This document shows positions 3,130 to 22,902 of a stretch of DNA of 32,305 bases, piece after piece. How positions within the stretch are numbered: the first letter of the stretch is position 1; each line of letters begins with the position of its first letter. The stretch is from a virus (Duplodnaviria > Caudoviricetes). The stretch lies in the IMG/VR virus record IMGVR_UViG_3300046751_000070, positions 1-32,305 of that record; one strand, given 5' to 3'. The position numbers were made by a program, and so were the translations under genes. The notes below the pieces were generated by a model, which did no database searches, was not told the origin of the DNA, and was given only the letters and a program-made list of their open reading frames with translations.

Positions 3130-6100
3130 CTATTTGTAACCGCCGGTCGCGACGTTGAAAATTTGCTGGTAGAGTTTAAACGGCAAGAGTTTCTGCGCGG
3201 TCTCTAGCCGATTGTCTTCGAAAGCCAAATTAAAGGTGTCGGTAAGCAGACCCGCTGACGGCCCAAGCACTAGAGACAGTCGTGCGTTCTCGCGGCTGTA
3301 TCGTGATGCGCCTTCCGACATTCCCGTTTGGGTCGCAATGGCGTCGATGGGTGTACTTAGGTACGTCAGGAATCCTGATCGATCTATCGCGTCATACGCC
3401 CACGAACCCGCGTCCCGCTCTTTGATCTCGCCGTAACGCAGCATGTCTTTCGCACCAACAACGGCAGTACCCAAGGCGAGTGCAAAGGCAAACGAACTGA
3501 ACGCTTGCATGTCCCCGTAGTTTGCCATTCGTTGAAACGCAGGGACCATAAACTTTGTCATCACGACAAACCCGTAAGTCTGGAACTGACCAATCATCTT
3601 AGCGTACTCGTTGGACATCAGAAACGGTGTGTCACCTTTGGACGGTGTCATCACGGCACGGTTCGCAGCGTTCTCCAAAGCAATCAAAACGTCTTGGTGC
3701 GCTGTTTGTCCGTCACGTCCTTCTTTGAGCCAACGATGCATTCCAAGTTCAAAGACACCCGCATCGTTCTCTTTGGGTGGGTATTTTTTGAACATCTTCT
3801 GGATATTACGCATCTCAGTCGATCCGAGACCTGACGCTGCAAGCTGTGCTATTTTGCCTTTGGCTATTGGATCATTGGCAGAAGCCGCCGCGAGTAAGCT
3901 GTCGTAATCCTTTGAGAGACGGGTAAAATTGTTCTGCATTTCGACCATCGCCAACATTTTGAGGCGCGAGTTCCACCACATCATACCACTGGCATACGAG
4001 GTGGTATCGGACAGTCCACGCATGATCCTATCGACACTGCTTGTGGTGTAATGCTTGACGGTCCCATAGTCACCAACGCCAGCTTGCAGTCGAGCATCGT
4101 CAGCACCGTTCATCGCCATCGTCCGGTTGCCGTGACCCATCAGTTCTAGTGCGTAAGCGAGACTTTTGATCTCGGCGTTACCCATGTTGCGTAGTGTCTG
4201 ATTGAGTGCTTTTAGATTGCGATAGGACATCGTGCCGAAACCGGTAGTCAGTGCCGTGTTTGACAGGTCGGTCAAGCTGGGGATCACAAAGCCAGAGCCG
4301 TAGCGAATGTAGTTAAACTCACGGACTTTTTGCATCGTAAAGTTCAACAAGGATTCGGGATCGGCGGGTAGGTCTAATTGCCCAAGCTGTCGTTGGACAC
4401 CCAGTTCGACGTCCTTGGTTGCCTTCAGTCTTTCGTTGTCCAGCTTGTTGATCTGCTTTTTCGTTGCGCCTTCACGCTGTGCCTTTGCGATCATGTCGAG
4501 GTAATCGTCATCGACTGCTTTGATCATTCCTTGCAGAATTTCCGTTTCGCTTCCACCAAAGTGTCCAAAGGTTTTTCTGAAGGCCATGCGCTGGGCGATA
4601 TCGATGTTGGCACGGTAAAGACTTTCGTACATATCGTTTTTTAGAATGCCTAGTTTGTGGGCTTCCCGACGCTGTTCGTTTGTCAGCTTGATCATGCGCT
4701 CTTTGAGGCGCGACGATTCCAGCACGTCTGTCGATAGTGCACCGCGTGGTGCTTGAGAACTTGTGCGAGATCCGAGTGTGTTCGTCAGTTCTTCAACGTA
4801 CTGTTCGAGTGGCTGATCGTTTTCTTTGCGCTTGGTCAGACGCTTGGCTTGCTTCAGTTTACGCTTGGCTTTCCGTGCACCTTTGGCTTGGTCATTCATG
4901 GCTGCGCGGCGTAGCTTTTTGACGGTCAAAAGTTGCTTACGCTTCTGCGTAGCGTCCACGACGTTTCGTCGCAGTGGGTCAATCTTAGCGTCTAACTTGT
5001 CGAGTTCTTTGTCCAGCTTTTTGATAGCTTGAGTGTTCTTATCGATCTTACCCTGCAAGTAACTGATACGGGTACTGCGTGGCTGTTTAGCTTTCACACG
5101 ACCTTCAGCATCCGTTCTGATCGGCTTATCGATATTTGCCAGATCGATGTCAGCCGCCGTAAGATTTGCTTCAGCGTCTAGCACTTCTTTTTTAGTCGCG
5201 GTTTGACCACGATAGTTCACCATGTCCAGAAGTGCCTTAGCTTCCTTCACGGTTTCTTCAGCTTGCAGACGCATCTTTTGTCCTGGGCGTCCGGTCTTGA
5301 CCATCTGGTCGATGTCTTTCTGACGCTGCTTGGCTTCCGCTTTTAACTTGCGGAGTTCGTCCAGCATACGATCATTCTTGGCCTTGCGATTGTCACGGTT
5401 CAATTTCCGCTGATCGCGTCTTGCTATTTGTTCTAGCAGAATGTCTTTTGCTTCTTTGACTGACGCTTTGATGATGTCGAAGTTGGTAGACCTAAACTCG
5501 GCAGCGGCTCTTACAGCTTCTTTTCGCGATGCAGTCGCTTCTAAATCGGCGTCCTCTTCCATCTTCTGGAGTTTCTTTAGGTCAGTCCGGTAGAGGTCGC
5601 CGGTCCACTCGCCCAGTATTTCGTTCTTGGCGGTAGCACCTTGTTCGACCGTATATACAGTCGGTTCACCATCCGAATTCTTGACCGTGACGTCTTCGAC
5701 ACCAAGCTTTCCAAATTGTTCTTTGGTCATCCCAAAAGTTGCTTCAAGAAACTCTTCTGTCGGATCGTCTGCAAACAGTTGCATGAAGAAGTTCCGAGCC
5801 GCAATCGGACTGCGTCTAATAGCCTTGCCGTCCCACAATTGTGGCGACACGAACTTGCGACCCAGACGTTCCTTTTCGGTCATCATACCGAGTTCAACCA
5901 GTTCGTCTTCCAGACGCAAATTGTAGTCGTGAAGAACATTAGCTTGCTCTTTGGCGCGTTGGATCACCATCATGGCGTTCCCTTTGCCAAACCGGTCGAT
6001 CAGGTTGTCGATCACGGCGTCATCAATGTCTTCATGTGCCGCTTTCGCAATGATGTCTTCGAACTCGGTTTTGCTGATGGCACTGGTAGTTTCTTCAACG

Positions 6101-7419
6101 GCTTTAGCCTCACCGGACGCCATTGGTCCCGCTGCGACGTCGGACGCTAGACCTTTAAGATTGGCTCCAAGATCGGCGGCTTTTTCTTTAGCAGTCCGCA
6201 AGCGACCGGCGTCAGCACCAGCAAGGTCAAAACGTAGCTTTTCGAAAGCCTCGTTGACCGGCCCCAAGATTTCCATTCGGAAGGTCATGATGCGGTTCGT
6301 TGCGACTTCTTCCATCGATCTGGTAGCCACACCAGCTTCAGCGGCCTCGTCAATCATCCCACCACGGTTGTACAGTTGAGACGTGATGTCTCGGAACGTG
6401 CCACTGTTGGACGTCATGCCACGAATGAGAGGCGATGCGCGACCTACCGTCTTTGTGACGGCAGCAAGACCGGCAGCACCAACTGCTTTGACACCAGCAC
6501 GGGCCACACCTTGTCCCATCAATGCGCCACGTTTAGCCATCTCGCTAGACTTTACAGCCGCCGCACCAACAGATCGACCGGCACCCGTCTCTGCGACCGC
6601 CTCGTACACCTGTTTGCCGTCTCTGGTGACACGCTTGAGTACGACACTTTCTGACAGTGACTCTCCAAGACCACGGACGCCCATGCTGACTTTGCTGTCA
6701 GGCCTAAAGACATAATTCGGGTTCGATGGGTTCAGAAAGCTGTCACCACGTCGAGCCGACACGAATAGCCCAAGACCACCGCCGAGACCGGAAGACAACG
6801 CAGTGTTCAATACGCTTTCTTCGATGGTCCGCACGTCGTTCATCAAGTGCAAACCGGCTTCTTGCACGACACTGAATTGTGCACCAGCCGTGGCCCATTT
6901 GGCTGGCTTACTGTTCATTAACTTGCCGACTTTACTGGCGGTCCCTAAACGCTTCGCAATGTTGACCCCAGGTATTAGCGTGGAGATATCAACAATGGAC
7001 CCAATGCCACCAAGCAGCATTCCAAAGCCACTACCGTTCTGTAGCTTCGCACGGTCTGCAACTTGTGCGCGGAACGATGCCACACGGGCCTCGTATTGTT
7101 GCTGCGAGTAGACCATGTCAAACTGACCGTCTTTGACGAAAGCTTCCATGTCGTTGTCTTTGTCACGGTTCGCGTTCCAGTGCGCGTAGACATTAAAGTT
7201 TTCGTCAGGCCGGTAGTTCCATGAGTTAGCGTCACGACCACGGTCGAACCCGTAGCGGATCGTGCTGCCGATCCACGTTTCTTGCATCCACATTTCACCG
7301 GCTGTGCCTATGACGCCGAGACCTTCTACGTTGTCTGTGGAGTAGCGGCGGGGGATCGATTGGACCGTCTCGACGTTTGTCTGAGTCGTGGTCTGTTGGA
7401 CCGTCTGTTCTTCAGCCAT
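3130..7419 (-). CDS. Large internal virion/ejection protein (gp16-like), 1429 aa
   Basis: Size and position before the tail fibre; Gly/Ala-rich hydrophobic N-terminal helices; C-terminal AVMTP..GD.P..QFQ.Y and LGP.AG patterns; AGGAG RBS. Confidence 0.85.
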   Translation of the reverse strand: MAEEQTVQQTTTQTNVETVQSIPRRYSTDNVEGLGVIGTAGEMWMQETWIGSTIRYGFDRGRDANSWNYRPDENFNVYAHWNANRDKDNDMEAFVKDGQFDMVYSQQQYEARVASFRAQVADRAKLQNGSGFGMLLGGIGSIVDISTLIPGVNIAKRLGTASKVGKLMNSKPAKWATAGAQFSVVQEAGLHLMNDVRTIEESVLNTALSSGLGGGLGLFVSARRGDSFLNPSNPNYVFRPDSKVSMGVRGLGESLSESVVLKRVTRDGKQVYEAVAETGAGRSVGAAAVKSSEMAKRGALMGQGVARAGVKAVGAAGLAAVTKTVGRASPLIRGMTSNSGTFRDITSQLYNRGGMIDEAAEAGVATRSMEEVATNRIMTFRMEILGPVNEAFEKLRFDLAGADAGRLRTAKEKAADLGANLKGLASDVAAGPMASGEAKAVEETTSAISKTEFEDIIAKAAHEDIDDAVIDNLIDRFGKGNAMMVIQRAKEQANVLHDYNLRLEDELVELGMMTEKERLGRKFVSPQLWDGKAIRRSPIAARNFFMQLFADDPTEEFLEATFGMTKEQFGKLGVEDVTVKNSDGEPTVYTVEQGATAKNEILGEWTGDLYRTDLKKLQKMEEDADLEATASRKEAVRAAAEFRSTNFDIIKASVKEAKDILLEQIARRDQRKLNRDNRKAKNDRMLDELRKLKAEAKQRQKDIDQMVKTGRPGQKMRLQAEETVKEAKALLDMVNYRGQTATKKEVLDAEANLTAADIDLANIDKPIRTDAEGRVKAKQPRSTRISYLQGKIDKNTQAIKKLDKELDKLDAKIDPLRRNVVDATQKRKQLLTVKKLRRAAMNDQAKGARKAKRKLKQAKRLTKRKENDQPLEQYVEELTNTLGSRTSSQAPRGALSTDVLESSRLKERMIKLTNEQRREAHKLGILKNDMYESLYRANIDIAQRMAFRKTFGHFGGSETEILQGMIKAVDDDYLDMIAKAQREGATKKQINKLDNERLKATKDVELGVQRQLGQLDLPADPESLLNFTMQKVREFNYIRYGSGFVIPSLTDLSNTALTTGFGTMSYRNLKALNQTLRNMGNAEIKSLAYALELMGHGNRTMAMNGADDARLQAGVGDYGTVKHYTTSSVDRIMRGLSDTTSYASGMMWWNSRLKMLAMVEMQNNFTRLSKDYDSLLAAASANDPIAKGKIAQLAASGLGSTEMRNIQKMFKKYPPKENDAGVFELGMHRWLKEGRDGQTAHQDVLIALENAANRAVMTPSKGDTPFLMSNEYAKMIGQFQTYGFVVMTKFMVPAFQRMANYGDMQAFSSFAFALALGTAVVGAKDMLRYGEIKERDAGSWAYDAIDRSGFLTYLSTPIDAIATQTGMSEGASRYSRENARLSLVLGPSAGLLTDTFNLAFEDNRLETAQKLLPFKLYQQIFNVATGGYK

Positions 7420-7451: not shown

Positions 7452-9938
7452 CTATTTGCGGAGTATGGGACGTTTAGATTTACTCACGCCACCAATGTTT
7501 GCCGCAATACGGTCACCCATGTTTCCAAGGTTGATCGAAATGTCTGTCTGCCATTTCTTACCGGCAGCTTTCAGTTCTTCTTGCCGAGCAAAGCCAATCA
7601 TGGACGCTTGTTCAGTCAGTGTGGCTGACGATAGTGCTTTAATAGCGTCAACTTCTCGTCCTGACTTCAATGCTTCATAGAATGTTGTGCGTTTACTTCC
7701 CTCGTTAAAGTCATAAGTGTCCGTAATGACGGTTTCACCCGCATCGTTTATCTTAAAGTTAAATACACCAAGACCTCTGGCAATTCTTGTTTCGGGATCA
7801 AATAGCCCTTTCAATAAGGGTTCTTTAAGGATCGTTTCGTTTGTTGTCCCTAAGTCCTCGTATTTGATGTAAGAACGTCCGTCCGCTCTGGCTATCCGTA
7901 TAGCTTCACGCATGGCATCCAACCCACCTTCGTTGAAATCGGCAGACGTTAACTTGCCCCCAGGACGCGCAGCGTTGCCTAAGAAGTTCACGAACTCAGA
8001 TGTCCCAAAGGACTGTACGGCTTTCGTTACGCTTTCAATTGTGTCCAATGCGTAGTCCGCTGCAACTCCCGCCGCTTCACCAGCAACGTCAAGTGCTTCA
8101 CCAACAAACGATCCAATCACTGCACCGGCACGATTGAAGACCGTACCGTCTTCGATATAGGCGTCCATAAGTGTTCCTTCAGAATCGTAGACTTCACCGC
8201 TAGTACTGATGGTGACCTCAAAGTCTTCTTCAGCGGTGTCAGTAATGGTGCCGAATGTGTAGTTCGATTTGTCTAAGACTTTACGGTTACGCTCAAGGAC
8301 CGATTGTACCGTCGATAGACGATCCTCTGTGTCTGCTTGTGTTGCCGCTGCGCGTGACGCTCTTTCAGCTTTCTTAAATGCACTAACGGTAGTCATGTTG
8401 GTATCGTCTAGGAATGCTTCTTCACTAACCGGCTCCATCGTTGGCACGGCGTTCTTTGGATCGTCGCGACCTTCAGTGTATAAGAAGGTCGATAGATTGC
8501 CATCTGTGCCAATCACGATCTCATCGCCCTCGACCAGTTCACCGGCGTCTCTTGCGGCGATATAATCACGGGTGTTGTCGAAGAACATCGCGCTCTCCAT
8601 ATCGACGTCAAGTTCTGCCAGCTTGTCATTCATTGATCCGCTGATCTGCTTGAGAGCGTCGTTCATTTCTGTAGACATCCCAGCGTTCTCAATCGCCGCT
8701 CCGAGTTCTTCCGCAAGTGAAGTAACTTCAGGTCCAACAGGTGGTGGTCCTAATCGTGAGACAGTGATTTCACCGTCTTGGTCAGGTACGACAACAGGCA
8801 CGATGTTGTTGTCTATCGCAGTGTCCACCGGTGTTGGCTTTTCGACGCCCAGCGCGATCTCTAGCTCACTCACAAGTGCTTCCGTTCCGACACTGTCGGG
8901 CCGCAATTGTGGGCGTAACGATCTGGCGACACCACCAGCCGACGCGGGTACGGGCATATCGTCAGGTCTCAATCGTGGTTTTAGTGAACTCTGCAAGCCA
9001 CTATCTGGCTTTGCCGTTGGTCTCAGCCGTGGGCGTAATGATCGCTTGAGACCACCACCTTGGACCTTTGCGCCCTGATTGGGTCTCAATTGTGGTTTCA
9101 ACGAGGTCTCTGGAGCAGTGACTTTACGTGGCACAGGCATCCCAAACATCGCTGCGTAATTACTTTCAGACTCCCCACTGATTATCTCGTCTGACCGATA
9201 CTGGGCAAAATGCATCGCTTCTTGCTTTCGACGCAACGCCAACGATTTGTTTTTCGATCCGTTGGACTTGTCGCGTATCTCAGTGATTGCCTTTTTGACG
9301 TCGCCGTTCTTTATGTGTTTCACTAAGTTCGGACCCAGTAGCGCAGGGTTGTGCATCACTAGTGACGTTAAGGTCATACGCTGGGGTCCGCGCAGTGGTG
9401 CACCATCTGTCAACTCAGAGATCAGCTTGTCTGCTTGGGCGACTTGGGCCTCATATAGTGCACGGCTGTCACGGCTGCTAATACCTTCAGTGCCGTCCAT
9501 CAACGCTTGCATCTGCTTGGGGGTCTTTCCGAGTACACCCGCCGCCAGCGCATAGTTCTCTGGATTGTCCAGATTGAACTCGTAGCCAATTACATTACGA
9601 CCAATCGCGTCTTTTTGTACGTTTTGACTGAACACGCGGTGGCCCGTGATGAAATCAAAACGATCACGATTGTAGTCACCAGCTTCCATGTCGAATGCTG
9701 ATGGTCCAATCTTTGAGTACACCTCGTTGTCCAGCATCTCAACGTATTCGCGATGTGGTAGGTCCAGCATCGTGTCCTCGACCGTCACACCAATCGTCGG
9801 GCTGACGAACCCCCCGTCGCGATATGCACCACGATGCAATTCGTTAAGCAGACTGTTGTATTTAGCTTCGTCTCCGACGTCGTTAAGTGTGCTGTAATCA
9901 ATAGGATTTTCGATGAGATAGTTGCTAATGGTGTCCAT
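7452..9938 (-). CDS. Internal virion protein with degenerate GH24 lysozyme domain, SLxPxLRP repeats and a C-terminal DxYDFN domain
   Basis: KDAIGRNVIGYEFNLD...LALRRKQEAMHF resembles GH24; lies between gp15-like and gp16-like genes. Confidence 0.75.
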   Translation of the reverse strand: MDTISNYLIENPIDYSTLNDVGDEAKYNSLLNELHRGAYRDGGFVSPTIGVTVEDTMLDLPHREYVEMLDNEVYSKIGPSAFDMEAGDYNRDRFDFITGHRVFSQNVQKDAIGRNVIGYEFNLDNPENYALAAGVLGKTPKQMQALMDGTEGISSRDSRALYEAQVAQADKLISELTDGAPLRGPQRMTLTSLVMHNPALLGPNLVKHIKNGDVKKAITEIRDKSNGSKNKSLALRRKQEAMHFAQYRSDEIISGESESNYAAMFGMPVPRKVTAPETSLKPQLRPNQGAKVQGGGLKRSLRPRLRPTAKPDSGLQSSLKPRLRPDDMPVPASAGGVARSLRPQLRPDSVGTEALVSELEIALGVEKPTPVDTAIDNNIVPVVVPDQDGEITVSRLGPPPVGPEVTSLAEELGAAIENAGMSTEMNDALKQISGSMNDKLAELDVDMESAMFFDNTRDYIAARDAGELVEGDEIVIGTDGNLSTFLYTEGRDDPKNAVPTMEPVSEEAFLDDTNMTTVSAFKKAERASRAAATQADTEDRLSTVQSVLERNRKVLDKSNYTFGTITDTAEEDFEVTISTSGEVYDSEGTLMDAYIEDGTVFNRAGAVIGSFVGEALDVAGEAAGVAADYALDTIESVTKAVQSFGTSEFVNFLGNAARPGGKLTSADFNEGGLDAMREAIRIARADGRSYIKYEDLGTTNETILKEPLLKGLFDPETRIARGLGVFNFKINDAGETVITDTYDFNEGSKRTTFYEALKSGREVDAIKALSSATLTEQASMIGFARQEELKAAGKKWQTDISINLGNMGDRIAANIGGVSKSKRPILRK
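8898..9104 (-). repeat. Four SL(K/R)P(Q/R)LRP peptide repeats
   Basis: Copies at 9081-9104, 9018-9041, 8964-8987 and 8898-8921. Confidence 0.95.
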
Positions 9939-9947
9939 TTGAATTTC

Positions 9948-12461
9948 CTATTTAACTAAGTAGAACGGCTTGGGACCACCACTGCCATAGCGGGTGGGTT
10001 GATACTCACGCGGCGTAAGAGCGAGACGCTCAATGTCTGCCTGAGTCAATTTAGGTGTTCCAATAAATCTCGGCATGACAATCAATTCGTACTCACCAAT
10101 CGCCCCATCCCCACCGTATCCAGTATAGATTGGCTCTAAACGAATTCCTGGTCCAAAGATTGCCACGGCGGCTGCACGATCTAGTGCCAGATCACCTGTG
10201 AAAGTCTGGCTGTATTCCCAATTCGCTGAGTTAGACAAAAAGCCACGCTCTTTACCGGACGGGTGATACCGGCTGTCTACTTGTATCGCTTGACCGACTT
10301 GAAGTGATACGGGCATTCCGTTTTCGTTAACAACGATCTGTGAGTTATCTCCGAGTCGAGGTATAGGTTTCGCTGTAAGTGTACCTTCAGTGAAGATCGA
10401 AAACGCACCATTTTCAATGTTCGATATGTCATTCTCCAAGGTCGCAACGGTGTCTTCGACTTCTCCGGTAGCCGTGTTGAGAACCGCTTTGCCCAGCACG
10501 ATACCACCAGCCGTGTTGGTTGCTTGCCGTCCAGACTTGACGATGCCATTTTGAACCCACATTTGATTTGACACAGCGTTGAATGCCGCTTGTTGGACAT
10601 CCTCAGTGCTGTAGTCACGATCTTGCGACATCTGATAGGCCACGTACACTTTACCAGCCGCCCTCAGTTTACGTTGAGTCTCAATGTCAATCCCACTGAT
10701 TGATGACCATAAACCTGTAAATCGCCACTCATTTAAAAGCTGACGCTGTATCATCGCGCCCATTGCGTCTTCGTTAAACAGTTCAGTGACAGTTTGCTCA
10801 CGTTCACGTTCATTAGCGGCATCAGGCACTAGGATTTCACCCATGCCTTTGCCGTCTAGTTGCTGCATTGCTTCAATAAAACCTGGATTAAAAGTCTTGG
10901 CAGCGGCAGCTTGTGGGGATGCACCATTCCGCATTTCGATAAACGCCGCCTCTGCGCCGAGTTTTGCAGCAAAGTCGTTCTTTGGTAACAATGAGGCTAG
11001 ACTTGCGCCGGTCGGATCGGCAATCATCAAGGCTTCCAATGCGTATGATTGCTGTGCTGGATCGCCCGACGTCAGGTGTGACGCAAACTTCTGTTGTACA
11101 TTCTTAGGGAAATTACCCGCACCGAAAGTCTGAACGTGATTTTTCAAGAATGCCCCAGCTTTTACTGACGCGCCATCGACACCCATTGGTGCATTCCGAT
11201 TAAGCCAATCGAGGGATGCGGATTTGTTTTCGGATGGATCATAGGATGGTGCGGGTGGCAATCCATTAGCCACGTTGTTCATTGCGACCTGATTGAAATG
11301 GTATTCAGCAAGCTTTGAGCGTTCTGTGTTGATGTCTTTTTTGAACGCAGCGATCTGCGTCATGGAAATCCCTGGAGTATTCTGCATCTTTGCGACTACG
11401 GCAGACCCTCTGTTTCCAATCAGGGCTAGCTTTGCGTACTCGTCCTGAGTGTTCGAAAGTTGCGTATTGAAATCTGAAGACATCTGAGAGAACGCTTGCT
11501 GTCCCGCCATTGTCGTGTTTCGTTGCACAGCGTCCATCAACGAGGTCTCTGCTTTCGCACTCATGATGGGAAACTTCTGAGCGATTGACGGCATCTGAGG
11601 CGCAGACGGGTCCATTGGGTCTTGCGCTTGGTAGTTCATATGAGCAATGAATTTAGCGATCCCGTTCTGGGACATACGTCCGGTCATCGCAGCGTTCACC
11701 ATGATCCCCAAGTTTCTTGCTTGGAGTTGACCGGTCGTTTCGCCAGCCCGTGATGTACCGCCTTTAAGGATCGAATTGAACGCCGCTGCCGTGATCTCAG
11801 GCTGTGCCATCTTGTTGTAGATCGACCGGCGATACTCTAGATCAGACGCGGCCTTTTGAAGTCGAACAGTTTCTTGAGCGGCGGTAACCCGTGCGGACTC
11901 GTAATTGCTGGCCCATGCGGTTTGCATCGCCATGTTAACTGTTGGGTCATCCGTGCCATCTTGGTAATTGTCTCGCCAGTAAGCTGACGCATTTGCTTCG
12001 AAAGTGCTAGGTGCACGTTGCGCTTGCGCGAGGGCAAAATCGGAATACATCCGTGACCCAATGTTTGCACCAAGTGAAGACTTAAAGGTGTCAACGAAAT
12101 GTTTATTCCCCTGTTGTTCGGGACTTGTAGTGCTTAACGCTGCGCCTACGTCGCGAGACTTTGGGTTCTCCATGTAATAATCAGTCGCGGAGACAGTCGC
12201 TTGTTTCTTCATGTCCACAGCGTATTCTTGCGCTTCGATCTTTTGGTTCTGAAAGTGCGCGTCTTGGAAAGTACCAATAGTTTGCGAAACGGAGCCAAAG
12301 AACTGATTAAAGGCATTCGTAAGGTCACCACGAAACGGGTCTAGCCCAGCACCTTCGCTCTGTATCTGGGGAACTTCTTGAGCAAACGATTGCGTTTTGA
12401 CACCAGCGAGACCACCAGTGGCTCCACGATAGTTGGTCTGTGACCGAGCCATTCTAGCCAT
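9948..12461 (-). CDS. Internal virion/ejection protein (gp15-like), 837 aa
   Basis: Position after the gp14-like gene, size and helical Ala/Gln-rich composition; assignment by synteny. Confidence 0.75.
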   Translation of the reverse strand: MARMARSQTNYRGATGGLAGVKTQSFAQEVPQIQSEGAGLDPFRGDLTNAFNQFFGSVSQTIGTFQDAHFQNQKIEAQEYAVDMKKQATVSATDYYMENPKSRDVGAALSTTSPEQQGNKHFVDTFKSSLGANIGSRMYSDFALAQAQRAPSTFEANASAYWRDNYQDGTDDPTVNMAMQTAWASNYESARVTAAQETVRLQKAASDLEYRRSIYNKMAQPEITAAAFNSILKGGTSRAGETTGQLQARNLGIMVNAAMTGRMSQNGIAKFIAHMNYQAQDPMDPSAPQMPSIAQKFPIMSAKAETSLMDAVQRNTTMAGQQAFSQMSSDFNTQLSNTQDEYAKLALIGNRGSAVVAKMQNTPGISMTQIAAFKKDINTERSKLAEYHFNQVAMNNVANGLPPAPSYDPSENKSASLDWLNRNAPMGVDGASVKAGAFLKNHVQTFGAGNFPKNVQQKFASHLTSGDPAQQSYALEALMIADPTGASLASLLPKNDFAAKLGAEAAFIEMRNGASPQAAAAKTFNPGFIEAMQQLDGKGMGEILVPDAANEREREQTVTELFNEDAMGAMIQRQLLNEWRFTGLWSSISGIDIETQRKLRAAGKVYVAYQMSQDRDYSTEDVQQAAFNAVSNQMWVQNGIVKSGRQATNTAGGIVLGKAVLNTATGEVEDTVATLENDISNIENGAFSIFTEGTLTAKPIPRLGDNSQIVVNENGMPVSLQVGQAIQVDSRYHPSGKERGFLSNSANWEYSQTFTGDLALDRAAAVAIFGPGIRLEPIYTGYGGDGAIGEYELIVMPRFIGTPKLTQADIERLALTPREYQPTRYGSGGPKPFYLVK

Positions 12462-12462
12462 T

Positions 12463-13044
12463 TTATGCCCCTATTCCCTTGATCGCGTTTAGCTGTTGTT
12501 GTTGTCCGTAAGCATTTGCACCAATCGACAACATCGTTGATGTCTTCTGGAGTTTCGCCGTGGTTTTACGTGCAGAAACTTCAGCCAGCGTGTTGGTTGT
12601 CTGATTTTGAGCCAGTGTCGTGCGGCTAATGTAGTTCTGCTTGGCAGCACCTTTTTGACTTTCGAGCGCCAACAGTGCGTTCTGTGAGGTCTTGTCGAGC
12701 CTCGTATAGTTCAACGCATTTCCATACGCTTCTTCAAACAGGATCGTACCAAGACTTGCGTCGGACAAAGCTGTTTCAGTTGCCCTCATTGTGCCTAGCG
12801 ACTCGTTTGCTGCGCGAAGGGCGTCTGACTTTTCGTCAAAATCGCGTGACTGTTCGTCAGCCATTTGCCTGTTGGTTTCTTGATACTCGGCTTTGGTTTG
12901 CGCTTGGGCCGCTGCGTACTCTTGCTGTAACTGCGCGTTGGCTCTTTCAGCCGCTTGGTTAGCTTGGGCAATAGCAGCACGTTCAGCCGCCTGTGCGTTC
13001 ATCATCTGCAAGCCCATCAGACCGGCTGTTATTGGATCACACAT
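12463..13044 (-). CDS. Internal virion protein (gp14-like), 193 aa; start revised to MCDPIT
   Basis: MCDP N-terminus typical of gp14-like proteins, Gln/Ala-rich helical body; ATG at 13044 follows the gp12 stop. Confidence 0.85.
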   Translation of the reverse strand: MCDPITAGLMGLQMMNAQAAERAAIAQANQAAERANAQLQQEYAAAQAQTKAEYQETNRQMADEQSRDFDEKSDALRAANESLGTMRATETALSDASLGTILFEEAYGNALNYTRLDKTSQNALLALESQKGAAKQNYISRTTLAQNQTTNTLAEVSARKTTAKLQKTSTMLSIGANAYGQQQQLNAIKGIGA

Positions 13045-13049
13045 GATGT

Positions 13050-15368
13050 CTACCCCGCTCTCGTTATTTCGTTGAACAATCCGGTGTAATCTATCGACGT
13101 AATGTTCATGGGTTTCTCTGTGTCGTTCAGTATTTGGATTTCCACAGTGTCTGATCGTGACATCACAGGACACTTAAATGACCCCAAGGGGGCAATCGCA
13201 GGGACACCAATCAGGTTGGCTCCAGACCCGACGATCCGTCCCGTGAACTGAAAGGTCTTAGCGTCTCGAAAGTCAGCGGTGACTTGCACCTTAAAGTGAC
13301 CCGTGTCCTTGAAGTTGAACTTCATGTTTTTCAACTGGAACCGTCCGGTCGTGATGGTCGTTTGCTGACTTGATGGATCACGCGGGTACAGCTTCGAGAG
13401 GATCACGCGAGAGGTGAACGTGGTCCCAACGATAGCTGCACCGCCGCTAAAGTCTCCAACCGCTGTGATCGTTGTGCTAGTCGGGTGCGAGACATTTAGA
13501 ACTTCACCAACGAGGCCGGTTGTAAAGTCGGTAGACAACACGACCGTCGCGGCGTTTTGATGTGGATACGGTGTGGTCCAAGTAGTCAGGCCCGTACCGG
13601 CGGCATAGGTTCCCGTCAGTGATACCTGACGATCCATGCTGATCTGATAGGGATGCTTTTCGTTTGACAACTCGTAGCGCAAGAAGATTTTCTCAAAGAC
13701 GGTCGTGCCGTTGCGCGTGAGGACCATGAACAGTTCACCGTTGATGATCTCCATGTACTTAATGACCGAGCCGGTTCCAAAGGTCCATTTTGTCCAAGCT
13801 GATTGGGCCTTGGTGTTTCCGTCCATGTACATCTTGTAGCAGTAGAGTGCGTTTGGTTCTGACTCACTGAGGACAAATATGAGATCATTAGTCGGATCGC
13901 CGGTCATACGCACGATGGGCGCAGGGACATACGAAAGGGCGTGAAGCGTAATGTCTTGAGCGACGTTTGACACCGACGTGTCATCGTATTGATACTCAAA
14001 GACAATCGCATCGCGTCCAGACTGAGCCGCAAAGTACAGCGTGTTACCAAGCGTAATCGGGCGGCACTTTGGTTCGGTCAAATAGGTCGTTGCGCGATCC
14101 ACACTGGCAGTCGATGGGGCCAGCTTCTCGGACCCGCTGACTTCGAACTGCGCCTTGTCACTGGTCAGAAAGAGTGACTTACGGAACGCCGTAGCGTGGA
14201 CCAAATTGTTCACCGTGTCTGATGAAACAGTTAGTCCAAACCCATCGCTGTCTAATGATTGTGTCGAAAAGTCAGGCCAAAATGTAAAGTACTTACCGGA
14301 CTGCGAAAAGAACACCGTCTCGCCAGACACAAAGCCCAAGCGGTTGCGGTGGTAAAACAATGCGGTAACCTTCGATCCCACAAAGTCTGGATCAGGAACC
14401 GTTTCGATATCCCCTGCGATCCGACTAGCGTAGGTTCCCTGTTTGAACGTAAAGGTTCCATTAGCGTTTCGAATGAGAAAGTGCGGCATGGTCGTGGCGT
14501 CAAAGGCATTGTCAGCATAAGGGTCGGCACTTTCGACCCAACCGCCTTCGTCGGGATCAAACTTGGCCCAATAGCCAAACTGTTCGCCGTCCACGTTTGC
14601 ACCGACGCGAATGTTGTATCCGGTGGGTGCGGTCAGCGGTAAGTATTCCCGTTTCGACACGACCTCAGTCATGCTCCACGGTCCATATGTCGCGTCTGAT
14701 CCAGCGTGTGCGATGGTAAACGCGGCGTTCCCTTGGATTACAATGGTCTGGTCGAGTACCGTGTGGGTAAACCCAGAGGGCAGCGAGATGTTCGAATTGA
14801 TATTCGATTGGACCTCAGTGCCACTAATAGAGTTCCCAGAGTAAGACCAAATGGTACTGGTTGATCCACCCGTCGTTATGCTGATTGAATAACTAGTCGC
14901 ATTGTTCGTGGTCCGACAGTTGATCAACGCTTTGTACGGATCGGTGTAGGTGCTGGCAGTCATCGCCACGGTTTTCTGCGCGTTGGCGATCACAGTGTAA
15001 TCTGCCAGTGTCACGAAAGACACATCGTCTCGTTCCGCACCCGTAATGTAGGCCACACCGTTTGGCGTGGTGACGGTCTTTTCGACACCATCAAGATCAA
15101 ACACTTTGATCGTATTGTTATTTACGACAATCATGTATTGTTCGGCTGTGTCACGCGCGTATGCATAGATCGCCGGTTTGTGACTAGCTGAGATACTCGA
15201 CATGTTCGAAATGTGTCGGCTCGACGGACGGCTTTCGACACCACCGTTGACCACTGAGACCAATACGTTTTCTGCTTCTTGTACTTGTCCTGGGAGCCTG
15301 ACGGGATCGGGTTGTCGGCTGACACCTTGGTACAGCGTTTTGATCGCTTGTTGGACTAGTTTACCCAT
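13050..15368 (-). CDS. Tail tubular protein B / nozzle (gp12-like)
   Basis: LYQGVSRQPD N-terminus, TMPH.L.R, PDFVG, HRNRLGF, QSAWTKW, GRFQLK motifs. Confidence 0.95.
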   Translation of the reverse strand: MGKLVQQAIKTLYQGVSRQPDPVRLPGQVQEAENVLVSVVNGGVESRPSSRHISNMSSISASHKPAIYAYARDTAEQYMIVVNNNTIKVFDLDGVEKTVTTPNGVAYITGAERDDVSFVTLADYTVIANAQKTVAMTASTYTDPYKALINCRTTNNATSYSISITTGGSTSTIWSYSGNSISGTEVQSNINSNISLPSGFTHTVLDQTIVIQGNAAFTIAHAGSDATYGPWSMTEVVSKREYLPLTAPTGYNIRVGANVDGEQFGYWAKFDPDEGGWVESADPYADNAFDATTMPHFLIRNANGTFTFKQGTYASRIAGDIETVPDPDFVGSKVTALFYHRNRLGFVSGETVFFSQSGKYFTFWPDFSTQSLDSDGFGLTVSSDTVNNLVHATAFRKSLFLTSDKAQFEVSGSEKLAPSTASVDRATTYLTEPKCRPITLGNTLYFAAQSGRDAIVFEYQYDDTSVSNVAQDITLHALSYVPAPIVRMTGDPTNDLIFVLSESEPNALYCYKMYMDGNTKAQSAWTKWTFGTGSVIKYMEIINGELFMVLTRNGTTVFEKIFLRYELSNEKHPYQISMDRQVSLTGTYAAGTGLTTWTTPYPHQNAATVVLSTDFTTGLVGEVLNVSHPTSTTITAVGDFSGGAAIVGTTFTSRVILSKLYPRDPSSQQTTITTGRFQLKNMKFNFKDTGHFKVQVTADFRDAKTFQFTGRIVGSGANLIGVPAIAPLGSFKCPVMSRSDTVEIQILNDTEKPMNITSIDYTGLFNEITRAG

Positions 15369-20940: not shown

Positions 20941-22902
20941 TCACCGTATTGGACATGCGCCAGTGGCACATTCATCGTCCATTAGTTCTTCGAGCGTGTT
21001 GTACAGTTCGATGTCTACCGGAAGTAACTTATCGTTGTACTCATAGAACGTCTCAGCATCGACAACTTCTTGGGGCAGATATTTGTATCCCAAGTCTTCT
21101 GCCGTTTTTGATGGATCATTACGAAACAGCCAAGATACCCCAACGTATGAGTCCCAGTTCGCAAGTAACCAATCGACAATACCATCAGCTTCGCTTGGGT
21201 CATAAGATATCGTGACGGAACAGTTCTGCTCGACGTAATGTTCCATTAGCATCTTGTAGCGGCGTAGCTGGTCGATAGCACTTTCGAGGTTCACTTGTTT
21301 ACCATTGACCGAGTCGAACTTGAGGTCTTTCCACTCGACCGGAAAGGTCACCAAGACTGCGTCTGGGTCCATTGGGTTCTGAATGACCTTGTAGTTCGCA
21401 GCTTGAAGCATCCCCAGTATCGGGTCGTGTCTACTAAAGTTCACGTTGTTGAAGATGTAACGACCGAGCGGTTTGTGCACACCTTCTGGACAGTCCATGA
21501 TCTTGCTTAAAGTGCCACTTGGTTTGACCGTCGTGACATTCTTAGGGCGTGGAGTTCCCAGTTCGTCTGACATACTGTAAGCAGCTTGGACCACAATGTT
21601 TCGCAGTGACTTCAGATCGTAAGCCGACAGGTGACCACTGACGATGCCTGTTAGCCCCACACCGCACAACCTCAAAAAGTCGTTGTTCTGTTGCCAAGCC
21701 TCTTGCAGAATGCCGTCATTAAAGTTCACACACGTTTGTCGATAGTTAGCACGGGCGACAATCTTTGCAGCATGGTGCAAGCCATTGGTATCACCTACGA
21801 ATTTACTAACGTCGATCTCGCATAGATTGCATACGCTCTTGTCAGAAAGCAAAATCTCCGCGCACGGGTTGCATCCGTCGAACCAAGGTGCCCTCGCTCT
21901 GGCAGCTTCACCGTTAATAAATCCTGGCTCCGACCCGTTGCTGTCAATCATTAACTGAAAGATCGATGAAAGTTCTTTGCGGCTTGGCTTCTGGTTGAAG
22001 ATCAGCGAGTTGTTCGACTGAGAGCGTTGCGGATTGTCTATCCAATGTTCGTTCTTCGCCGTGGCGAACTCTTCCCATTCGGCTGATCCGTACTCAACTA
22101 GACAAATTTCTGCGCTGCGACGGCTCGACAAAACTGTGCCTAACCAGTTGACGATATCCAGAATGTCCATCTTCTTGAGCAACTGACCGGCACGTTTAGA
22201 CATGATCGTCGCGATAGCTGTGAACGCTTTGGCAATCGCAGCGTCACCCGATGATATCCAACCGTAACCTGCAAGTCGGTCACCGGCTGGGCGTATTTGA
22301 CTAAAGTCGAGAACAAGAGTGTCCGCTGGATACTTACCAGCCATCAGTTTGCCGACAGCTTTAGCCCACCCCTCTGCAGAGTCACCAACAGCAATCGACC
22401 AGACCTTTTTGTCTTCATCCCAACGCTCGACGTTGTGGTCGCAGCCGCCTTTAGCTTTACGCTTGGACCGTTTGACCTCGACGTTCATTGGTTTCGTAAA
22501 GCCATTCAACGTGCCAGCCCGTGGTACAAAGCCGACGCCAGCACCTTGCAATAGGAGCCACAAGATATCGACAAGGTCACTGACAGTTTTGGCGTGGGTA
22601 AACGAACAGTTAAACATCGATGCTTCACGACGCTTGCTGATCTCTGTGCCACCAAGCCAAAGCGTCCGTCCACTCATAGAAACTTTGCGGTCCATCATTA
22701 AGCTTTTTAGAACGGCGAGTTCGTTGTGCATCACGTTGGTGACTTCTTTAGCCCCAGCCGCACGACACCAGAGCCAGCCCTGATGGTCGATCACACGATC
22801 AACTGTTTGTTCCCAGCTTTCGAACTTCGTACCGGCGTCATCCAGAGGACGGTTGTATGTGCGGCGCGTGATAATCTGTGCGCGTGTCGATGGTGATCTC
22901 AT
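20941..22902 (-). CDS. nrdJ: Class II (adenosylcobalamin-dependent, monomeric RTPR-type) ribonucleotide reductase
   Basis: RTYNR, GRTLW, FNCSF, RRSAEI, NPCAEI, CNLCE, TTVKPSGT, C-terminal CATGACPIR; no beta subunit nearby. Confidence 0.93.
   Translation of the reverse strand: MRSPSTRAQIITRRTYNRPLDDAGTKFESWEQTVDRVIDHQGWLWCRAAGAKEVTNVMHNELAVLKSLMMDRKVSMSGRTLWLGGTEISKRREASMFNCSFTHAKTVSDLVDILWLLLQGAGVGFVPRAGTLNGFTKPMNVEVKRSKRKAKGGCDHNVERWDEDKKVWSIAVGDSAEGWAKAVGKLMAGKYPADTLVLDFSQIRPAGDRLAGYGWISSGDAAIAKAFTAIATIMSKRAGQLLKKMDILDIVNWLGTVLSSRRSAEICLVEYGSAEWEEFATAKNEHWIDNPQRSQSNNSLIFNQKPSRKELSSIFQLMIDSNGSEPGFINGEAARARAPWFDGCNPCAEILLSDKSVCNLCEIDVSKFVGDTNGLHHAAKIVARANYRQTCVNFNDGILQEAWQQNNDFLRLCGVGLTGIVSGHLSAYDLKSLRNIVVQAAYSMSDELGTPRPKNVTTVKPSGTLSKIMDCPEGVHKPLGRYIFNNVNFSRHDPILGMLQAANYKVIQNPMDPDAVLVTFPVEWKDLKFDSVNGKQVNLESAIDQLRRYKMLMEHYVEQNCSVTISYDPSEADGIVDWLLANWDSYVGVSWLFRNDPSKTAEDLGYKYLPQEVVDAETFYEYNDKLLPVDIELYNTLEELMDDECATGACPIR

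Follow-up and report, generated by a model that had tools for sequence, protein, structure and literature searches.

In short-tailed phages, the opening and holding of a path through peptidoglycan is usually put down to muralytic domains that ejection proteins carry. The SLT domain of T7 gp16 and the phiKMV-type lysozymes cut mature peptidoglycan, and internal virion proteins are reported to host tail-lysozyme and passenger domains variably (PMC4819975). Here we describe an accessory cell-wall domain, likewise on a predicted ejection protein, that is not a known muralytic fold, often occurs beside one, and has a lipid-linked precursor as its proposed target. It forms the C terminus of an 828-amino-acid (aa) protein encoded by IMGVR_UViG_3300046751_000070, a 32.3-kb linear virus record with a CheckV completeness of 73% (all 32,305 nucleotides are referred to as the window).

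The closest described domains are those of the colicin M (ColM) family (PF14859: ColM, PaeM, syringacin M and pectocins M1 and M2), which share with the phage domain a DxYDFN sequence at the end of a hairpin strand, a Gly before the hairpin, the predicted order of elements, a weak whole-domain structural alignment and, in the 828-aa protein, an Arg at position +10. BtpeA is said to be a wall-precursor phosphatase. Its C-terminal domain (PDB 9jdi) and the DUF3289 (PF11692) effectors of type VI secretion systems (T6SS) differ from the phage domain in being bacterial effectors with immunity proteins; BtpeA is named in PMC13402684 and PMC13699834, and further ColM-fold toxin domains are reported in bacteria (PMC12419801). 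In the literature covered, which left out most subscription papers, a ColM-fold domain in phage virion proteins is not described, although the source data of the lipocone paper might list such domains; among the papers listed on virion proteomics, none was seen to treat a carrier of the domain.

A colicin M-type motif

A first-pass annotation had read a ColM-type DxYDFN...R motif at this C terminus and compared it with the ColM pattern DxYD(x5)HR and its spacing. Motif and spacing are both confirmed: the protein has D740-T-Y742-D743-F-N-E-G-S-K749-R750 (codons 7721-7689), and colicin M from plasmid NC_009837 has D226-K-Y228-D229-F-N-A-S-T-H235-R236, followed by E241-x-L243. D740, Y742 and D743 supply the DxYD part, and K749 occupies the His position at +9. 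The other differences it listed are also real, namely a shorter LG-to-Asp segment (16 residues versus 29 in ColM) and a longer Asp-to-GK distance (53 versus 26, a 27-aa insert where about 30 had been estimated). By spacing, G724 is predicted to correspond to G197 of ColM. The six-frame translation contains DxYDFN(x4)R a single time, with about 1e-4 expected in 9,172 residues (15 main open reading frames (ORFs)), and the looser DxYD(x6)R has an expectation of 0.06 in the same residues; both figures are post hoc, as the pattern was chosen after being seen.

A widespread, unnamed domain family

Only aa 633-807 are shared with cultured phages in tblastn searches. The 11 matching records are all of the cobavirus type (SIO1, ICBM1/3, CRP-4; 41-43% identity), and roseobacter phages are the only cultured carriers found. 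In SIO1 gp23, ICBM1 gp35 and CRP-4 gp36 the domain differs in being a stand-alone product of about 257 aa, annotated as hypothetical and carrying NxYNFN rather than DxYDFN; its gene follows internal-virion genes and a lysozyme-like gene. SIO1 gp23 in NC_002519 (L009:7755-8357) ends just past the motif, whereas resequenced SIO1 (L010) has the full 257-aa frame; the shorter version in the older record is likely to stem from a sequencing error. A profile of 22 domain sequences retrieved 890 representatives at E ≤ 0.001, 192 of them at E ≤ 1e-10.

We aligned 146 of the top 150 representatives with the 828-aa protein (147 rows). G724 is invariant, and D740 (Asp in 135 rows, Asn in 11) and Y742 (Tyr in 135, Phe in 12) are strongly kept, as are G734 (138), Y693 (137), F744 (130), N745 (128) and D695 (124). 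D743 is split between Asp (78) and Asn (67); the D740/D743 pair is D/D in 77 rows, D/N in 56 and N/N in 10, and the His/Arg pair is no family feature: His at +9 occurs in one row, Arg at +10 in 21 and the full DxYD(x6)R in 8. R750 is kept in all five close relatives, and KR or RR is common in the 20-member clade around the 828-aa protein; the D/D form is found in outer branches, and matches to the cobavirus query are N/N in 48 of 61 cases. Among the 29 ColM rows themselves His is present in 21 and lacking in 6. The ExL and GKxQ anchors also noted at first pass add little: E755-x-L757 has the spacing of ColM E241-x-L243, but neither anchor is conserved in the family (Glu in 19 of 90 ungapped rows at column 755; gaps in 124 of 147 at columns 794-796). 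An Arg at +10 and one at column 779, in the helix that comes next, almost exclude each other (both in 3 rows, the former alone in 18, the latter alone in 82, neither in 44), a pattern hinting at a relocated catalytic Arg but confounded by phylogeny (8 and 10 changes).

Ten cobavirus-type members (P0052, P0055, P0056, P0059, P0060 and P0062-P0066) share one N terminus and have very divergent C-terminal domains (DxFNYN, DxYDWN, DxYDFN), which resembles the pattern of polymorphic effectors.

Wall-associated partners and a lysozyme fold

The domain is mobile, standing alone or at the C terminus of proteins of 129-2388 aa. In a Pfam scan of 145 representatives, 49 by hand tally carried a LysM, PG_binding_1, phage lysozyme, SLT or CHAP partner, 45 of them above cut-off; two had crAss cargo domains and one had LPD38. 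This is a real, widespread and unnamed wall-associated phage domain. P0190 and P0204 bear the crAss virion cargo domain (PF25725), and the family may therefore reach into phages of Bacteroidota.

At four loci (L030 and L032-L034) the domain follows a lysozyme domain whose catalytic motif is acidic, and the genes are internal-virion genes or lie beside them. The 828-aa protein repeats this layout, but with R101 and V116 in its lysozyme fold. An HMM (hidden Markov model) built from six lysozyme domains of family members matches its aa 113-250 (E = 4e-10), and the homologue in a complete relative (G001, below) scores 22.4 bits, above the Pfam cut-off. In T4 lysozyme, Glu, Asp and Thr of Glu-x8-Asp-x5-Thr have catalytic roles. 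Here R101 stands in the Glu column (HRVF aligned with HEGF or EEGF of family members), D110 is kept and V116 replaces Thr; Arg occupies the Glu column in all four close relatives that cover the region. The fold is thus likely to be inactive, judging from these residues. The first-pass reading had overlooked this domain. Repeats of the type that follows the fold (Table 1) are common in periplasmic proteins of Rhodobacteraceae; similar ones occur in eight other family members, six of which carry PG_binding_1.

Probable relationship to colicin M

The AlphaFold2 (AF2) model of the domain has a pLDDT (predicted local distance difference test) of 79 (core 81-95), and its Foldseek match in BFVD is the ICBM3 protein (E = 4e-18, TM (template modelling) score 0.80). 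Whole-domain, order-preserving VIA alignments were obtained only with ColM-family chains and BtpeA, ColM-family structures were enriched in the Foldseek ranking, an ESM search led to two ColM-fold families, and a profile match was obtained for a motif-free N-terminal part. These results argue against a fold unrelated to ColM in which DxYDFN arose by convergence, the domain then being a new wall-acting enzyme or binder, such as a hydrolase of peptidoglycan or another envelope polymer. We consider that alternative unlikely, yet several results favour it: all structural scores against the ColM fold are sub-significant, two of three motif-free segments fail to align in place, and architectures with LysM or PG-binding modules are those of wall hydrolases.

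The Pfam Colicin_M profile (PF14859) matched neither the 828-aa protein, its domain, the six-frame genome nor the 145 representatives, our own ColM HMM gave at most 8.2 bits, the DUF3289 profile matched nothing in the window or in the Pfam scans of the domain and representatives, and the family HMM did not score the single DUF3289 sequence tried. The protein does not have the layout of a bacteriocin, with its TonB box, receptor domain and neighbouring immunity gene: the domain lies behind a lysozyme fold and its gene is directly flanked by the 837- and 1429-aa virion genes. On balance, we lean towards true relatedness, with the fold and a ColM-like order of elements predicted from the models. 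The proposal of an ejected ColM-type enzyme is upheld in part: the domain is wall-associated and likely to be remote kin of ColM, with a putative activity.

Proposed action at the wall

The 828-aa protein is likely to travel in the capsid and to enter the host periplasm by ejection. There the lysozyme fold, perhaps with the basic repeats, would hold it at the wall, by analogy with the LysM and PG_binding_1 partners of relatives. In the C-terminal domain, predicted to be a shortened and remote relative of the ColM catalytic fold, D740, Y742 and D743 would engage the pyrophosphate-sugar head group of lipid II, probably via a metal, as suggested by analogy with ColM and PsyM (PMC8469651). Cleavage or sequestration of lipid II would then stall local peptidoglycan repair around the DNA-ejection channel. 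That the ejected module engages lipid II and probably cuts it is a tentative reading, and catalysis taken by itself is doubtful. The ColM substitutions D226A/E/N, Y228A, D229A, H235A and R236A are all reported to leave less than 2% activity (PMC8469651), so a His-less, sometimes Asn-substituted site would be expected to be weak or inactive. Against such inactivity weigh the ColM rows without His and DUF3289, for which cell rounding is reported despite its lack of HR. A pectocin M1 module without catalytic activity is, moreover, reported to have still lysed cells from the periplasm (PMC5821083).

The same pectocin result also suits a ColM-derived domain that is not catalytic and that binds lipid II or nascent peptidoglycan, anchoring or positioning the channel or sequestering precursor without hydrolysis. 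The missing His, the mostly absent Arg, the N/N version stably kept in cobaviruses and the apparently inactive partner lysozyme fold are consistent with it. Retention of D740, Y693, D695 and N745, typical of a catalytic or metal site, and the possible relocation of the Arg, confounded though it is by phylogeny, speak against it, and we regard it as rather improbable. The most far-reaching version, in which many environmental phages inject a compact ColM-type enzyme that destroys periplasmic lipid II at the entry site and, while DNA is being ejected, blocks wall repair or growth, is likewise unlikely as a whole. In this version the enzyme would accompany a muramidase in many members but replace it in the present lineage, whose lysozyme domain lacks the catalytic Glu.

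Genomic context

The minus strand of the window carries a T7-like set of genes for RNA polymerase, primase-helicase, DNA polymerase, portal, scaffold, capsid, tube and nozzle, a gp14-like gene, the 837-, 828- and 1429-aa genes and a T7-type tail fibre. Against the 20 cultured phages listed, the identity of the RNA polymerase reaches about 28% at most. The 828-aa ORF, preceded by an AGGA-type ribosome-binding site, lies between the 837- and 1429-aa genes; it follows those for the tube, the nozzle and the gp14-like protein and precedes the tail fibre. This is the position of podovirus ejection genes, and a relative (L003) has the same order; the gene order points to an internal virion protein. 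Its ejection is probable in view of this position, of the cargo-type fusions and of a lysis cassette encoded separately. The 837-aa protein has no Pfam or PHROG match, the 1429-aa protein has no Pfam match at E ≤ 1 and no detected muralytic domain, and the lysozyme fold is the only muralytic domain detected in the ejection genes of this phage.

G001 is a complete 44-kb relative whose C-terminal domain is 98% identical; it encodes a terminase, a holin with three transmembrane segments, a Peptidase_M15 endolysin and an integrase. This separate endolysin and holin, the location inside the ejection block and the lack of a transmembrane segment in the 828-aa protein (maximum 19-residue hydropathy 1.17) make it very unlikely that the domain is a lysis protein, made late and blocking wall synthesis from inside to aid bursting, even though the stand-alone cobavirus gene has a lysozyme-like gene, annotated as an endolysin, on one side and a spanin on the other (PMC6775973). 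In CRP-4, moreover, the lysozyme-like and domain genes (gp37 and gp36; L007:7217-8531) start with near-identical N-terminal peptides, which suggests common packaging; the shared peptide is a candidate packaging or ejection signal that would make the annotated 'endolysin' virion cargo. A purely structural, ligand-free part of the ejection conduit is similarly improbable: ejection proteins are largely structural and any activity of the domain is putative, but the domain is mobile, its conserved motif is polar, and T7-like phages and cobaviruses have it in common although they do not share the remainder of the protein.

In G001, a tyrosine integrase and a small putative upstream regulator (L041:13115-14254 and 12463-12792) lie beside the T7-like RNA polymerase, which suggests a temperate T7-like phage. 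Like cobaviruses, the phage of the window, which has a T7-like RNA polymerase, carries a gene for a class II (B12-dependent) ribonucleotide reductase together with a MazG-like one (20941-22902, minus strand).

Table 1 Features of the 828-aa protein and its neighbours in the window
Feature	Position	Strand	Basis
828-aa protein (lysozyme fold, S-L-[RK]-P-x-L-R-P repeats, acidic linker, ColM-like C-terminal domain)	7452..9938	-	ORF
C-terminal domain, aa 641-808, unnamed phage family, core TxG...G...Dx[YF][DN]FN...INLG	7515..8018	-	tblastn, profile search, AF2 model
Motif D740-x-Y742-D743-F-N-(x3)-K749-R750	7689..7721	-	translation
G724, invariant glycine before β-hairpin	7767..7769	-	147/147 rows
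Four S-L-[RK]-P-x-L-R-P repeats (aa 279, 300, 318, 340)	8898..9104	-	motif search
Lysozyme-fold (GH24-like) domain, aa ~97-250	9189..9650	-	Pfam PF00959 E = 0.0027, below cut-off
1429-aa downstream neighbour, gp16-like by size and position only	3130..7419	-	phrog_16310, function unknown
837-aa upstream neighbour, gp15-like by size and position only	9948..12461	-	inferred
gp14-like small internal virion protein	12463..13173	-	Pfam T7_gp14 E = 0.0014, below cut-off

Implications

The phage domain defined here is widespread but unannotated; it accompanies modules that bind or cut the wall and weakly resembles a stripped-down colicin M. It is amenable to testing, as a soluble unit of 170 residues with natural D/D and N/N variants and with cultured carriers in SIO1, ICBM1 and CRP-4. 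Even without the link to ColM, it deserves a name as a new domain associated with the cell wall. Should lipid II be its target, it would add a further class to the envelope effectors that virions deliver and would extend the ColM fold from bacteriocins and T6SS effectors to viruses; phage entry would then include a mechanism aimed at the wall precursor rather than at the wall, in a family of at least 890 sequence clusters.
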